This document shows, piece by piece, positions 57,644 to 62,206 of a stretch of DNA of 64,000 nt. How positions within the stretch are numbered: position 1 is the first letter of the stretch; the number at the start of each line of letters is the position of its first letter. The position numbers and the translations under genes are program-made. Source of the stretch: Escherichia phage WPEC1. The stretch lies in sequence record PV659873.1, one strand, 5' to 3'. Under the pieces are notes generated by a model. That model was not told the DNA's origin. It searched no databases and saw only the letters and a list, made by a program, of their open reading frames with translations.

Positions 57644-58246
57644 TTATGGACATTCATACCATTCTTTTTTACCACCGAAGGCCATCACCACATCACAAAT
57701 ATCCAGACCCGCTTTACCTACACCATATGCTTTCAGCTTCCATTCCCCATCTTCACGAACCAAGGAGGCCACGTGGCAGATTGTGTTGCCAGCTACTTCA
57801 GGAGCCAGGAAGTCAAAATCCAGAATTTCCACATTACGTTCGGAGTCAAAGATTTTAAGCATACCTTCAGAAGCATGACCAAAACGTTTCAGACCTGTAT
57901 CATCATCAATGGTCAGAACAAAGGCAATCTCTTGTGCATCAGGAGAGATTTTAGCCAGAGTAATATCAATCTGCTCCATGCTGCCAGTCCCATCACGAAC
58001 ATCGTCGCCAGCGAAAGTAGAACGTTCAGGATCAAACTTGTTAGCATAGCAAACCAGGTGACGTGCAGACAGCATTTCAGGATTGCCAGCAGCATTATGA
58101 CGACAAACCAGTGCACTTACATCCAGATCCAGTTTAGAATTAGATTTCCAAGAGAATTCCAGGCGCAGTTCTTTCAGAGCCGGAGCAACTTTCTTCAGGG
58201 AAATTTTTTCGCTAGAGCCTTTTTTCAGGGAAATTTTATCAGTCAT
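57644..58246 (-). CDS. terD: TerD-family protein
   Basis: MTDKISLKKG...LDLDVSALVC...FVLTIDD...REDGEWKLKAYGVG closely follows the TerD pattern; AGAGGAG RBS. Confidence 0.85.
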   Translation of the reverse strand: MTDKISLKKGSSEKISLKKVAPALKELRLEFSWKSNSKLDLDVSALVCRHNAAGNPEMLSARHLVCYANKFDPERSTFAGDDVRDGTGSMEQIDITLAKISPDAQEIAFVLTIDDDTGLKRFGHASEGMLKIFDSERNVEILDFDFLAPEVAGNTICHVASLVREDGEWKLKAYGVGKAGLDICDVVMAFGGKKEWYECP

Positions 58247-58261
58247 CTTTTGTCTCCTCTA

Positions 58262-58531
58262 TTATTTAAGTGTAATACCAGTTACAGTCAATTCTACTTC
58301 CAAAAGCTTAGATGTGTTTTGGATTGTTACTAATTGTGCATGATGGTTTAGTTCTACAGCAGAATAATCATTTTCCCCATCATCTACTTTTAAATAAACA
58401 ATGACTTCACTAAGGTCTAAACCATTTTCGTCAAATGCATTTTCATAGACGAAAGTATCTCCTACATCCAAATCTTTAATGGTAAGGCATCGTTTATTTA
58501 CTTTTTGCTCATCAATTTCGAAGTTTAACAC
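58262..58531 (-). CDS. small beta-rich protein, paralog of 59553..59849
   Basis: DLDVGDTFVYENAFDENGLD...TVTGITLK vs DLGIGDTFMYYAAYEDAGLD...EVTNITLK. Confidence 0.5.
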   Translation of the reverse strand: MLNFEIDEQKVNKRCLTIKDLDVGDTFVYENAFDENGLDLSEVIVYLKVDDGENDYSAVELNHHAQLVTIQNTSKLLEVELTVTGITLK

Positions 58532-58760
58532 TTCTTCCTCCTAATGTTATCTCCGGTTTGTCTATACGAAGAATTATAGCATTTTCATTTTCTTTGTCAA
58601 CCCATTCTTCATAATCGGGCCATACATGAATCTCTACTCTACTTACAATATCTTCCATCCGCACAGTCCCAATGAAGTATTCTTTGAGACTGCGCATAAT
58701 GAAAGCTTCTCTCTCGCGCCAATAATTTTCTACGACTTGAGAGGCAAGCTCGTCGATCAT
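58512..58760 (-). CDS. hypothetical protein
   Basis: 82-aa ORF. Confidence 0.45.
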   Translation of the reverse strand: MIDELASQVVENYWREREAFIMRSLKEYFIGTVRMEDIVSRVEIHVWPDYEEWVDKENENAIILRIDKPEITLGGRSVKLRN

Positions 58761-59551
58761 TTTTTAGCACCTACTTTAACAACCCACTCTCCGAACTCTT
58801 CAGATAAGAGTTTGTCATAAAGCTCTGAATCTGTCAAGTCTAAATCTTTAATGCCAATAAAACCAACATTATCGTAAGCATTTGCCAGTTCTTTCAGGAA
58901 GCCAAACTTCTCATTACCAACGCCAACCATGAACCAATAAATAGGTTTATTCTTATTCTCTTCAATAAGACGACGAACAGCACTAGGATCACCATTCTCA
59001 CCGTCTGTCTGGAAGAATACAACACCAGGAGTAACGTCAGCACTTGGTTCAGATACAGCTACAACCTTTTCACGCTCTACAGATACTGTTTCAGTTTTAC
59101 CAAGCAGACGATTAAAGAAGCCTTTCTTTGGAGCCTGCTCTTGTACCACTTGTTTAGTGGTAACATATTTGGTAACAGTGCCAAAATACTCATCATAGAT
59201 ATCTGCCATTACAGGAGCGTAATTTGTTCCACCTCCAATGCGAACATTACGCATACACTTACCAACATAATCATCGTAAACGTCTGCTGTTGCTGGAGTA
59301 AGCTCTTGAGAACTCGTATTGAAGGCCCACATATCAATCTGTTCATTATCATCGAACAGCATACCAAAAGGAAGCAGTTTACCTACAAAATCACTCACTA
59401 CCCCACGAGCATATAGACCATGCATACTACCAGAAATATCTAGCGCACAAGCTACACGAAGAACAATCTTACCTTCGTTCAGGTTCTTATTCTTTTTCAG
59501 AGAGAAAGCAAGGTTTTCTTGACGTTTTTTCAGGCTGATTTTCTCGGACAT
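58757..59551 (-). CDS. von Willebrand factor A domain protein (TerY-like), TerD-like N-terminal tag
   Basis: MIDAS-like ALDISGSMHG; N-terminus MSEKISLKK...FSLKK echoes the TerD start. Confidence 0.7.
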   Translation of the reverse strand: MSEKISLKKRQENLAFSLKKNKNLNEGKIVLRVACALDISGSMHGLYARGVVSDFVGKLLPFGMLFDDNEQIDMWAFNTSSQELTPATADVYDDYVGKCMRNVRIGGGTNYAPVMADIYDEYFGTVTKYVTTKQVVQEQAPKKGFFNRLLGKTETVSVEREKVVAVSEPSADVTPGVVFFQTDGENGDPSAVRRLIEENKNKPIYWFMVGVGNEKFGFLKELANAYDNVGFIGIKDLDLTDSELYDKLLSEEFGEWVVKVGAKK

Positions 59552-60387: not shown

Positions 60388-60785
60388 TACAAACCCTCCT
60401 TCAGATTATCAAGAGCTACAGTGGTTTCACAAAATTCTCCATAAGCTTTATGATGTTCCAGAAAAGCTTCGGGTCCGCCCCAATCATTATCTTGTGTATT
60501 CCAGCCATCAATAAAAGCATCTTCAATGATTGTGATAAGTTCTTGTCGAGTCAACGTAATGGTATCAGGTTTCTGTGTAGTTTCCACACGGAAGCCTGGC
60601 TCTTTGTAAAAACCTGTAGTTACAATGGCTTCTAATTCTTCTGCATCGCAGAGGTAATAACCACAAAGATAACACCAACCATCGTCATCTTTCATTACTT
60701 CATAAACTTCACCACTGGTTAACTTGGTGAAAAGAGTAGGATCTGTTACTGTTAGTTTTAAACGAATACCTGTTGGATTATACAT
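60387..60785 (-). CDS. hypothetical protein
   Basis: 132-aa ORF. Confidence 0.5.
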   Translation of the reverse strand: MYNPTGIRLKLTVTDPTLFTKLTSGEVYEVMKDDDGWCYLCGYYLCDAEELEAIVTTGFYKEPGFRVETTQKPDTITLTRQELITIIEDAFIDGWNTQDNDWGGPEAFLEHHKAYGEFCETTVALDNLKEGL

Positions 60786-60951
60786 CTTCTTCCTCCTCTA
60801 AAATATGAAACCCGTAATTACAATAATCCTGAAAGGTTTCGTGTGCAAGATCTTCTATATCCTCTTGAGACATATCATCTTCAATTTCGATATCCACAAC
60901 CTCATTGCATCCACACCAAGCAGTTTCAATATTCACTCGTAATATTTTCAT
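60778..60951 (-). CDS. small acidic protein (57 aa)
   Basis: GGAGGAGtaATG; MKILRVNIETAWCGCNEVVDIEIEDD...; ATGTATAA overlap with next gene; not in ORF track. Confidence 0.35.
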   Translation of the reverse strand: MKILRVNIETAWCGCNEVVDIEIEDDMSQEDIEDLAHETFQDYCNYGFHILEEEEDV

Positions 60952-61148
60952 TACTCCTCCTCTTCATTGAAGTCAATATCTGCAAGGAGTTCGAATTTAC
61001 GGAAGTTACGACAACCTTCATAAATATAACAATCACGACAAACTGCTAGAACGCTTGGGGGATATATGCCTCCCATCGGTGCGAATCGTTTTTCGTCATC
61101 ATAACGGACACCAATGTCTTCATCGATCATATAGATACGGATTCTCAT
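60951..61148 (-). CDS. hypothetical protein
   Basis: 65-aa ORF. Confidence 0.4.
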   Translation of the reverse strand: MRIRIYMIDEDIGVRYDDEKRFAPMGGIYPPSVLAVCRDCYIYEGCRNFRKFELLADIDFNEEEE

Positions 61149-62206
61149 TTACCAAGCCCTCGTTTCACAGCAGCTACCATCCCGTCTTCCAGAGATTGAA
61201 CTTCATTAATATAATCAACACGAGCAGCACGGGCTTCCGTATTGATGCGGTTAGTTTCTTCCAACATCTTAACCAAGTTTTCCTGATCGTGACGCAGAGT
61301 TTCAATATCCAACACTTGACGGTTAGCCAGTGCTGCTGCTTCGATCTGATTCTGTGTGGCAAGATCGCTACCCAGTTTAATTGCCAGGTTAAATTCATCA
61401 AGAACGTTATTCTGCGTCTCTGCTGCTTTCATTTGACGTAAGCTCTCGATATACATTGAGAAGTTAGCAGAGTAAGCAGGAATAACATTATTTACTATGT
61501 TACGCGCAGATCGCATTAAGCTTGCAGAAACTTTTTGCATACCTTGTACACGCGGTCCCATTTGGACACACAGTAGGCGCAATGCTTTTAAATCTGCAAT
61601 ACGAATCTCCAGAAGATCCAAAGTATCTCGGATCACTTGTCGCTGTTCTACTGCATCTTCTGGAAGAGCAGCCAAAGCTTGTTCTTCTTTTTCATAGGTT
61701 GCTGTTAGAAGCTGCATATCTCGGTTCAAACTTGCAGCATATTGTCCAATAGCTTGATGTAGCTTTTCAAGATATACCAAGGAATCTTCTTCTTTGCGAA
61801 TATCCATTTGAAGGTTCTTTACCAACTCTTCAATACGGTTATTAACATTATCAAACTCCCCAAACAGGTCTTCTTTCATACCCATAACTTTTTTAATGAG
61901 TTTAGTAATACCCTTGCTTTGTTTAATAGAGTTTGGATCAAGTTGTTTTGCCTGTTTAATCAAAGCTGTGAGTCGTTCACTCATCTGATCGCCTTGATTA
62001 CTACGTTGATGTTTTAATACCTCGGCATTCAAGGAACGCAAGGTTGTTCCTGCCTCTGCCCCAATCTCTTCGATCTCTTGTCGGGTCATAGAAGGCAAAA
62101 CTGGAACTTCTTGCGGTGCCGCTGGTGCATAAACAGGACTGGCATCTAACACGCTTGGAGCGAATACAGATTTACTTGCATCTGTTGTTGCAGCAAATAC
62201 GCTCAT
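61145..62206 (-). CDS. TelA-like (toxic anion resistance family) coiled-coil protein
   Basis: 353-aa all-helical protein in the same transcription unit as terD and the vWA gene; assignment by overall resemblance. Confidence 0.45.
   Translation of the reverse strand: MSVFAATTDASKSVFAPSVLDASPVYAPAAPQEVPVLPSMTRQEIEEIGAEAGTTLRSLNAEVLKHQRSNQGDQMSERLTALIKQAKQLDPNSIKQSKGITKLIKKVMGMKEDLFGEFDNVNNRIEELVKNLQMDIRKEEDSLVYLEKLHQAIGQYAASLNRDMQLLTATYEKEEQALAALPEDAVEQRQVIRDTLDLLEIRIADLKALRLLCVQMGPRVQGMQKVSASLMRSARNIVNNVIPAYSANFSMYIESLRQMKAAETQNNVLDEFNLAIKLGSDLATQNQIEAAALANRQVLDIETLRHDQENLVKMLEETNRINTEARAARVDYINEVQSLEDGMVAAVKRGLGK

Follow-up and report, generated by a model that had tools for sequence, protein, structure and literature searches.

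Bacteria, plasmids, and phages commonly carry genes of the Ter and TelA families, whose connection with resistance to tellurite, colicins, and phages dates back decades. Here, we analyzed such genes in a 64,000-nucleotide stretch of Escherichia phage WPEC1 (sequence record PV659873.1), hereafter called the window, in which positions 57644-62206 hold a Ter-like block with every gene on the minus strand. In the model of the Aravind group, a Ter system combines nucleoside-metabolite enzymes and a ligand-binding TerD with the membrane protein TerC and a sub-membrane layer of TelA and TerF-vWA (Anantharaman, Iyer, and Aravind 2012, as summarized for phages by Iyer et al. 2021, PMC7824862). For phages, the ZCKP1 paper described 'four genes related to tellurite resistance' with superinfection and colicins as the rationale (PMC6141743), and Ter genes were also reported for phiKp34 (PMC8386662), phiPsa374 (PMC9796965), and jumbo phages (PMC7824862). 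Superinfection exclusion was already proposed for the phage genes in the works on ZCKP1 (PMC6141743) and the jumbo phages (PMC7824862). Furthermore, the GenBank record of SKA64 labels a TerD family protein, vWA-TerF-like, TelA, and TerC, and other records, including ESCO37 and UP17, annotate these genes as well, with 'TelA-like protein' and 'general stress protein 16U' among the labels in use. Within this phage genus, the Ter locus is unexceptional and has been reported before, and the functions that a preliminary description, made from the sequence alone, had suggested (superinfection exclusion, host-stress manipulation) repeat published speculation.

Our tentatively favored explanation, which we regard as close to an even call, is that the block encodes a cation-dependent Ter complex at the inner membrane face, made early and protecting the envelope of the infected cell against superinfection, colicins, and stress. 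From the observed family identities, conservation, neighborhoods, and motifs, we infer its assembly, membrane binding, expression timing, and benefit to the phage. The five genes at the center of this explanation are the following (lengths in amino acids, aa):

57644-58246, minus strand: TerD-domain protein, 200 aa (PF02342, E 1.5e-28)
58262-58531, minus strand: smallA, an acidic protein of 89 aa directly upstream of TerD (phrog_11278)
58757-59551, minus strand: stand-alone TerF-type vWA protein, 264 aa (PF10138 vWA-TerF-like, E 8.9e-38)
59553-59831, minus strand: smallB, an acidic protein of 92 aa with a GTG start, directly upstream of vWA (phrog_11278)
61145-62206, minus strand: TelA-family protein, 353 aa (370 aa in relatives; PF05816, E 2.7e-33)

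The preliminary description had named TerD, vWA, TelA, and two small paralogs on this strand, and all of them were found where it had placed them. The profile search it proposed was carried out, and all three Pfam matches lay far above the curated cut-offs. TelA reached 115.9 bits (cut-off 30) over profile positions 13-327 of 332, vWA reached 130.9 bits (cut-off 29.4), and TerD reached 100 bits (cut-off 25.3) with profile positions 3-177 of 187 aligned. TelA also matched phrog_5890, 'tellurite resistance', with an E-value of 1.4e-134, and a sequence search of solved structures found no relative of it. TerD, the single TerD-family gene of the locus, matched the solved TerD structures 2KXT (E 1.1e-15) and 3IBZ and is 99.5% identical to its counterpart in ZCKP1. 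A scan of the block proteins against NCBIfam gave no match.

Positions 43400-62255 of the window are 100% identical to Escherichia phage WPEC6 and share approximately 97.5% identity with phAPEC8 and numerous further Phapecoctavirus genomes, which places WPEC1 in the genus Phapecoctavirus, subfamily Stephanstirmvirinae, by sequence. Members of these taxa are virulent myoviruses of approximately 150 kb. From telA to terD, the genes follow one another closely, either overlapping by 1-20 nt or separated by short gaps. Compared with the Justusliebigvirus muut, the ratios of nonsynonymous to synonymous divergence (dN/dS) were 0.076 for TelA, 0.131 for TerD, 0.144 for a 187-aa protein described below, 0.177 for smallB, and 0.222 for vWA, with dS near saturation. 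Ratios of 0.08-0.22 between two genera indicate real genes under purifying selection. As a virulent E. coli phage subfamily keeps the Ter core under such strong purifying selection, its proteins should be useful within a single infection cycle.

By tblastn of phage records, the vWA gene was found in 218, TelA in 223, and TerD in 148 records, approximately 130 of them Stephanstirmvirinae, and throughout this subfamily the set TelA-vWA-TerD is inherited vertically. The Caulobacter jumbo phage CcrColossus carries TelA-vWA-DUF475(TerC-like)-TerD, the Pseudomonas Otagovirus phiPsa374 carries TelA-84 aa-vWA-TerC-TerD, and the conjugative plasmid p2 of Caballeronia grimmiae (L011) shows TelA-vWA-DUF475/TerC-TerD in the same order. 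The occurrence of the cassette in unrelated phages and a plasmid points to an old mobile unit common to bacteria and phages. Likewise, 18 of 22 IMG/VR loci picked via vWA have TelA and/or TerD within 5 kb (both in 16). As a separate observation, the Ter proteins of MG065650.1, MG065656.1, and OP562383.1, labeled 'Campylobacter phage B15/C3' and 'Acinetobacter phage vB_AbaM_ABPW7', are 81-97% identical to those of the E. coli Stephanstirmvirinae, and the Campylobacter and Acinetobacter host labels of these three records look doubtful.

The block covers half of a Ter system of the type described by the Aravind group. In SKA64, WPEC6, muut, and L016, a contig of metagenomic origin, the region upstream of telA holds an SprT-like protein, a few open reading frames (ORFs) without assigned function, TerC, a Macro-domain protein, a ComF-like phosphoribosyltransferase (PRTase), and a haloacid dehalogenase (HAD) hydrolase. 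The TerC of these relatives matches PF03741 (E 4e-40) and the PRTase matches PF15610, PRTase_3 (E 2.3e-41), whereas the hydrolase gene, although annotated as HAD, gives only a weak profile match of 21.2 bits, below the cut-off of 26.4. The PRTase, HAD, and Macro genes are present in WPEC6, SKA64, and L016, and TerD, TerC, and TelA/TerF-vWA stand together in one neighborhood in L001, L002, L003, and L016. A tblastn search of the window found none of these upstream genes, since the window diverges from all relatives at 62256.

TerD proteins are known to bind Ca2+, as seen in the Klebsiella TerD structure 2KXT, through the acidic motifs DLD and GDNxTGxGDGDDE. The phage TerD keeps the DLD motif (D40, D42), and its acidic loop reads GDDVRDGTGSMEQ compared with GDNRTGEGDGDDES in Klebsiella. 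Here, GTGSME stands in place of GDGDDE, so that three acidic positions are lost, while the TerD proteins of CcrColossus and phiPsa374 retain the canonical loop. The vWA protein has a complete metal ion-dependent adhesion site (MIDAS), with D38-x-S40-x-S42, T109, and D183 invariant in alignments of seven phage and plasmid homologues. A match to the vWA-TerF-like profile was also found for PDB entry 9NO5 (chain A, 212 aa, E 3.3e-6), labeled 'putative secreted protein, hemolysin', which may be the first structure for this family; a literature search found no paper on it.

The preliminary description had noted that the vWA N-terminus mimics that of TerD. This likeness, MTDKISLKKGSSEKISLKK in TerD and MSEKISLKKRQENLAFSLKK in vWA, is real, although it is a family-wide feature found in unrelated phages and a plasmid and hence not specific to this phage. 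The element ISLKK...FSLKK comprises vWA residues 5-20, and the serine codons of TerD and of this vWA element differ (TCC vs AGC), which argues for conservation at the protein level and against a recent DNA duplication. Ahead of their vWA domain, the proteins of CcrColossus (VINLAKEKAEKVTISLAK), phiPsa374, the Caballeronia plasmid, and metagenomic relatives all show the pattern [IV]xLxK...xLxK, with L7, L18, and K20 invariant across the aligned homologues. The N-terminus of the phage vWA protein can be aligned to the stretch of IncHI2 TerF that links its TerD domain to its vWA domain (RISLEKK...VSLTKNK), and the TerD protein of each phage compared starts with a motif matching the element. Judged from these sequences, a contact of the vWA N-terminal element with the TerD sandwich is a reasonable idea and may exist.

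A second motif in the vWA protein, KKGFFNRLLGK at residues 142-152, lies inside a variable insertion of the stand-alone vWA proteins. Almost all of 120 stand-alone homologues carry [KR]xGF[FL]xxL[FL]GK or a shorter K[KR]G[FL]FGFG, and the counterpart in the Caballeronia plasmid protein is EKRSFLSRLFGG, whereas TerF proteins fused to TerD have nothing at this position. The motif resembles the E. coli MinD C-terminus, KKGFLKRLFGG, known as an amphipathic membrane-targeting helix. Both share basic residues, a glycine, and hydrophobic residues at i, i+1, i+4, and i+5. However, the MinD helix is C-terminal on a ParA-type ATPase, while the vWA motif is internal, within an insertion of the vWA domain, and the resemblance is one of sequence alone. 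No transmembrane segments were predicted in any protein of the telA-terD block. Together with the motif, this leads us, by analogy, to regard vWA as the likely peripheral membrane anchor of soluble Ter components. Next to this, a Band_7 (SPFH) gene was observed directly after TerD in a diverged relative (L009, 2095-2574), a further hint of membrane action.

The small proteins smallA and smallB were described as paralogs in the preliminary description, and this was borne out: they are 31-33% identical (31%, E 7e-15) and both belong to phrog_11278 (E 4.5e-44 and 5.8e-46, respectively). Each has a GTG start behind a GGAGG ribosome-binding site, and both are acidic with net charges of -11 and -6. 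For smallB, the true GTG start gives 92 aa, and the listed ORF of 98 aa begins too early. A smallB orthologue occupies the same position in Justusliebigvirus (hhalign E 2.9e-34). When 1.84 billion representative proteins were scanned exhaustively with the family profile, approximately 15 proteins of 87-93 aa emerged as members, and in all 10 of the 10 loci examined outside the window the family adjoins vWA and/or TerD, down to approximately 30% identity. The gene order is vWA-small-TerD in L007, L008, L009, and L015, small-TerD in the short contig L006, small-vWA-TerD in muut, L013, and L014, small-vWA-80 aa-small-TerD in the window and L012, and small-small-vWA-80 aa-small-TerD in L016. Copy numbers range from 0 to 3, and several lineages hold a single copy between vWA and TerD. 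A neighbor-joining tree separates the copies that precede vWA from those that precede TerD into two clades, so the duplication predates the split of Phapecoctavirus from L012/L016.

Structure prediction of the small paralogs, suggested in the preliminary description, succeeded for one of the two. The AlphaFold2 model of smallA from an 18-sequence alignment was confident (mean predicted local distance difference test, pLDDT, 86; predicted template modeling score 0.78) and shows five beta-strands and one short helix, while the model of smallB from a 7-sequence alignment was unusable (pLDDT 38.5). Compared with the PDB, the smallA fold gave weak matches only (E at least 0.17), including the small barrel-type domains of ribosomal protein L2, FeoA, and YorP; no match of the small family to PDB structures was significant, and the sequence search of solved structures was also empty. 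The fold searches further returned weak matches to many uncharacterized small phage proteins. Matches to giant repeat proteins (He_PIG, DUF11, ankyrin) were rejected as spurious because they came from heterogeneous families with scores summed from many short stretches, and an Ig-like or cadherin-like reading is not supported. The 84-aa (phiPsa374) and 87-aa (CcrColossus) ORFs of the cassettes were likewise rejected as family members (hhalign probability <1%). In the sister lineage L024-L026, with a vWA 57% identical to ours and the order TelA-87 aa-228 aa-vWA-TerD-endolysin, no member of the small family was found even with the HMMER filters off. From this, we regard the family as an accessory to the vWA/TerD pair that is confined to particular lineages, and not as a core subunit. 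The proposal of dedicated partners thereby stands with respect to the constant neighborhood, but one partner each is too strong for a family with 0-3 copies and none in L024-L026.

With regards to expression and the downstream border of the locus, three further features are relevant:

58573-58600, minus strand: predicted sigma-70 promoter, TTGACA-16 nt-TATAAT with extended -10 TGn, 40 nt upstream of the smallA GTG (pattern match)
57607-57626, minus strand: GC-rich hairpin GAGGGGGA-gaaa-TCCCCCTC, 18 nt after the TerD stop
57024-57545, minus strand: SleB-type endolysin (Hydrolase_2, E 1.8e-17) with an N-terminal hydrophobic, signal-like segment MLIKNFVTVALLSLTAFTFTPVVAKAEA

The promoter is the only 12/12 sigma-70 match in 64 kb (8 of 100 shuffles give at least one), and L012 and L016, with approximately 75% identity in this region, have kept it in the corresponding place. 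This only perfect consensus of the window, upstream of smallA-TerD and conserved in diverged relatives, is the basis on which we consider early expression plausible. An 11/12 match lies upstream of smallB-vWA (59996-59968). The hairpin probably marks the end of the Ter unit; as it has no canonical T-run on the minus strand, its terminator activity is presumptive. It is followed by a separate promoter-like site for the endolysin gene (57606-57578). The signal-like segment suggests, by sequence, that the endolysin is Sec-exported or of the signal-anchor-release type. Such a Hydrolase_2 endolysin follows TerD in all Stephanstirmvirinae-like lineages examined (window, muut, L009, L013-L016, and L024).

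In the favored explanation, the Ter genes would be expressed early by the host RNA polymerase, and their proteins would form a complex on the cytosolic side of the cytoplasmic membrane, with TerC as the integral component. The vWA protein may dock to the membrane through its internal amphipathic motif KKGFFNRLLGK, while its MIDAS site and N-terminal ISLKK element could mediate cation-dependent contacts to TerD. The cation dependence is suggested by the invariant MIDAS residues together with the Ca2+ binding of the TerD family. TelA might serve as an extended helical scaffold, and the small acidic proteins as accessory subunits or regulators that certain lineages have added to the vWA/TerD pair. 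This soluble, membrane-peripheral half (TelA, vWA, and TerD) would work with TerC and the PRTase/HAD/Macro set encoded upstream. The complex is envisaged to change or stabilize the membrane and cation state of the infected cell, which would be shielded from DNA injection by superinfecting phages, colicins, and envelope stress until the phage's own lysis. A more detailed version for Stephanstirmvirinae-like phages would have the stand-alone TerF-type vWA anchored by the internal MinD-like helix, the ISLKK...xSLKK element pairing with N-terminal strands of TerD, and phrog_11278 proteins in 1-3 copies acting as adaptor or MIDAS ligand that controls vWA-TerD assembly. Taken as a whole, this version is doubtful; if true, it would be the first concrete, testable architecture for a Ter core complex, and in a tractable E. 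coli phage.

Several points weigh against the favored explanation. The MinD-like motif is internal and not C-terminal, so that its role is assigned by analogy. With its degenerate acidic loop, Ca2+ binding by the WPEC1 TerD is not assured. The lineage of L024 keeps TelA-vWA-TerD without the small family, which is therefore not essential to the complex. The promoter upstream of smallA lies inside an 82-aa ORF, and its conservation may thus reflect protein coding. None of the 10 block proteins matched the models of PADLOC-DB 2.0 at E <= 0.01, and the literature searches brought up no experimental work on any phage Ter module. The only Ter locus with published phage inhibition is terZABCDEF (Whelan 1995, as cited in PMC8386662 and PMC9796965). 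This Phi phenotype was described for that larger gene set, of which TerB, TerA, TerZ, and TerE were found neither at the phage locus nor in its relatives; for TerB, the search covered the window block and the upstream genes of WPEC6, with the IncHI2 locus (L010) for comparison.

One alternative is a role in signaling or anti-defense: the Ter proteins would act with PRTase, HAD, and Macro enzymes that make or destroy a nucleotide-derived molecule, with TerD or vWA as sensors or effectors, to counter host immunity and not to shield the envelope. PRTase_3, HAD, and Macro are indeed syntenic with TerC-TelA-vWA-TerD in Phapecoctavirus, Justusliebigvirus, and L016, and Macro domains are known to bind or hydrolyze ADP-ribose derivatives. 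The Ter model also has these enzymes yield a nucleoside-like signal (PMC7824862). However, in the examined stretches of Otagovirus, the Caulobacter phages, and the Caballeronia plasmid, the four-gene cassette stands without annotated enzymes of this kind, the enzymes lie outside the window, and by Pfam TerD, vWA, and TelA have no nucleotide-binding or catalytic domain, so we consider this role quite improbable. The neighboring lysis gene offers another explanation, in which the module would keep up the proton-motive force and an intact membrane and thereby prevent premature release or activation of the Sec-exported SleB-type endolysin. Exported and signal-anchor-release endolysins are triggered by membrane depolarization, and the signal-like segment and the constant position of the endolysin behind TerD in the Stephanstirmvirinae-like lineages are in line with such timing. 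Yet this adjacency may be the inherited gene order of one clade. No endolysin is annotated beside the cassette in Otagovirus and the Caulobacter phages, the hairpin and the separate promoter-like site stand between terD and the endolysin gene, and the predicted sigma-70 promoter points to early and not late expression. A function in lysis timing appears distinctly unlikely to us.

The family names and the PHROG category would suggest a literal resistance of the infected host to tellurite, metalloids, or metals as an auxiliary metabolic function, and a contribution of Klebsiella TerC-family proteins to tellurite and zinc resistance is reported (PMC12054061). A cell infected by a virulent phage does not survive to benefit, though, TerB, TerA, TerZ, and TerE are missing from the set found, and the authors of the phiPsa374 study judged tellurium resistance unlikely with an incomplete set (PMC9796965); we therefore regard this explanation as extremely unlikely. 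For the small paralogs alone, it could be argued that they are ordinary small phage ORFs, duplicated locally and functionally unlinked to Ter. This would fit the weak fold matches, the lineage of L024 that does without them, and the variable position and copy number of the genes. It is at odds with a family of approximately 15 members in which all those with readable context flank vWA and/or TerD, even at approximately 30% identity, with two paralog clades that each hold their own position, and with a dN/dS of 0.18 for smallB, and is in our judgment unlikely. The complex at the inner membrane face thus remains the explanation we tentatively prefer for the block.

The remaining ORFs of the block are listed below; four of them (65, 57, 132, and 187 aa) lie between telA and the upstream small paralog.

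58512-58760, minus strand: 82-aa ORF (phrog_22387) that contains the consensus promoter
59824-60387, minus strand: 187-aa protein with an N-terminal domain of approximately 135 aa (MGCFSFLC...) of a widespread phage family
60387-60785, minus strand: 132-aa ORF whose C-terminal half matches phrog_14200
60778-60951, minus strand: acidic 57-aa ORF (phrog_1997, E 6.7e-26)
60951-61148, minus strand: 65-aa ORF (phrog_24000; 35% identical to its positional counterpart in muut)

The 82-aa ORF occurs only in lineages that also have the second small paralog, with 80-aa counterparts in L012 and L016. The 57-aa ORF reached 23.2 bits against PF23768 (DUF7167), just below the cut-off of 24.4, and both it and the 65-aa ORF are poorly conserved even in comparison with muut. 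The family of the 187-aa protein comprises 314 clusters at E <= 1e-3, and the relatives listed outside the phage group are mostly approximately 50-65% identical. Its N-terminal domain had no Pfam match and no relative among solved structures by sequence search. The homologues in L017-L020 stand beside DNA polymerase, helicase, and replication-organizer genes of unrelated contigs with no Ter genes nearby; the 187-aa protein was rejected as a member of the Ter module for this reason, and its family may deserve a study of its own. The preliminary description had also assumed one transcription unit. The common orientation and tight packing agree with this, but the internal sigma-70 consensus matches and the genes at 59824-61148, which have no demonstrable membership in the module, do not. 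For these genes, one unit with one function fails, since the homologues of the 187-aa protein are found among replication genes without Ter and the 65-aa and 57-aa ORFs are poorly conserved.

On its low-coordinate side, the Ter block is flanked by a primase/helicase gene, four glycosyltransferases, and the SleB-type endolysin, and in complete relatives the high-coordinate side runs on to anaerobic ribonucleotide reductase genes. The four glycosyltransferase genes are consecutive (53178-56322, minus strand), stand between the primase/helicase gene and the lysis region, carry GT1-/GT2-type annotations in relatives, and may modify the cell surface or DNA.

The end of the window beyond telA requires caution. 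Collinearity with the relatives breaks at 62255/62256, inside the telA start codon, where ATG is changed to TAG at 62255-62257. As the start codon and the first 17 codons are thereby replaced, the TelA of the window can start only at Met18 of the 370-aa protein. The following stretch (62256-64000) is a patchwork of tandemly duplicated segments of approximately 150 nt and fragments of 72-77 nt from a multi-copy gene. Specifically, 62256-62405 matches 62416-62565, 62649-62801 matches 62806-62958, and 62334-62410 equals 62959-63035. The gene from which the fragments derive encodes CapR-domain repeats, is annotated as endonuclease elsewhere, and occurs at 10-18 places per WPEC genome. The junction was absent from 50,697 phage records, and IMG/VR contained no exact copy of it. 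In the related deposit WPEC2, the break falls no more than 6 nt away from this position, and the surroundings of its Ter locus are littered with fragments of approximately 73-104 nt (mostly 73-84 nt) in both orientations from window positions 62173-62255 and 62556-62656. In addition, an exact repeat of 77 nt joins the scrambled right end (63871-63947) to the distant positions 20370-20446. The scrambling of 62256-64000 is probably a misassembly of chained read-length pieces and not biology, and the truncation of TelA by 17 codons should not be interpreted.

For the study of Ter systems, phages of the phAPEC8 type are a convenient system for learning Ter function, a point already made in the literature and no new phenomenon. 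The three structural leads, namely the MinD-like motif, the N-terminal element, and the small family, turn the vague notion of a 'membrane-associated complex' into specific mutations and interaction tests. The published sources on phage Ter genes report no experiment and mention neither the small paralog family, nor the vWA N-terminal element, nor the MinD-like motif. The narrow family of small paralogs with its beta fold, the family-wide N-terminal element of vWA, and the MinD-like motif appear not to be described elsewhere.

In comparison with the Ter stress-response system, the phage locus shares TerD, TerC, TelA, and the TerF-type vWA, as well as the PRTase and HAD genes in complete relatives. 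It differs in that the phage stretch examined yielded neither TerB nor ATP-grasp nor TerY-type genes, that TerC of the Stephanstirmvirinae lies several kb from TelA-vWA-TerD with unrelated genes between them, and that the small proteins of phrog_11278 are added. TerD-family proteins and TerC are also shared with terZABCDEF, the locus for tellurite, phage (Phi), and colicin (PacB) resistance known from E. coli O157 and IncHI2 plasmids, and the C-terminal vWA of its TerF aligns with residues 4-257 of the phage protein at 27.5% identity. However, this TerF is a TerD-vWA fusion of 413 aa without the MinD-like motif, and the locus has no TelA. The preliminary description had likened the block to yceC-H of Bacillus. 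The yceCDEFGH operon of Bacillus subtilis, a single envelope-stress operon, contains TerD paralogs together with a TerC protein and with TelA (YceH); to our knowledge, it has no TerF-type vWA and no small-protein family, and its gene order differs from that of the phage block. The likeness is surpassed by that to the wider Ter system and to the TelA-vWA-TerC/DUF475-TerD cassette of the plasmid and phages. The Caballeronia cassette agrees with the window in families and gene order, and its stand-alone vWA, 38% identical to the vWA of the window, has both the N-terminal xLxK and the basic-GF[FL]xxLFG motif. A difference concerns the slot between vWA and TerD, which holds TerC/DUF475 in the cassette, the 82-aa ORF and smallA in the window, and a single small gene or nothing in other phage lineages; compared with the cassette, TerC is displaced upstream here.

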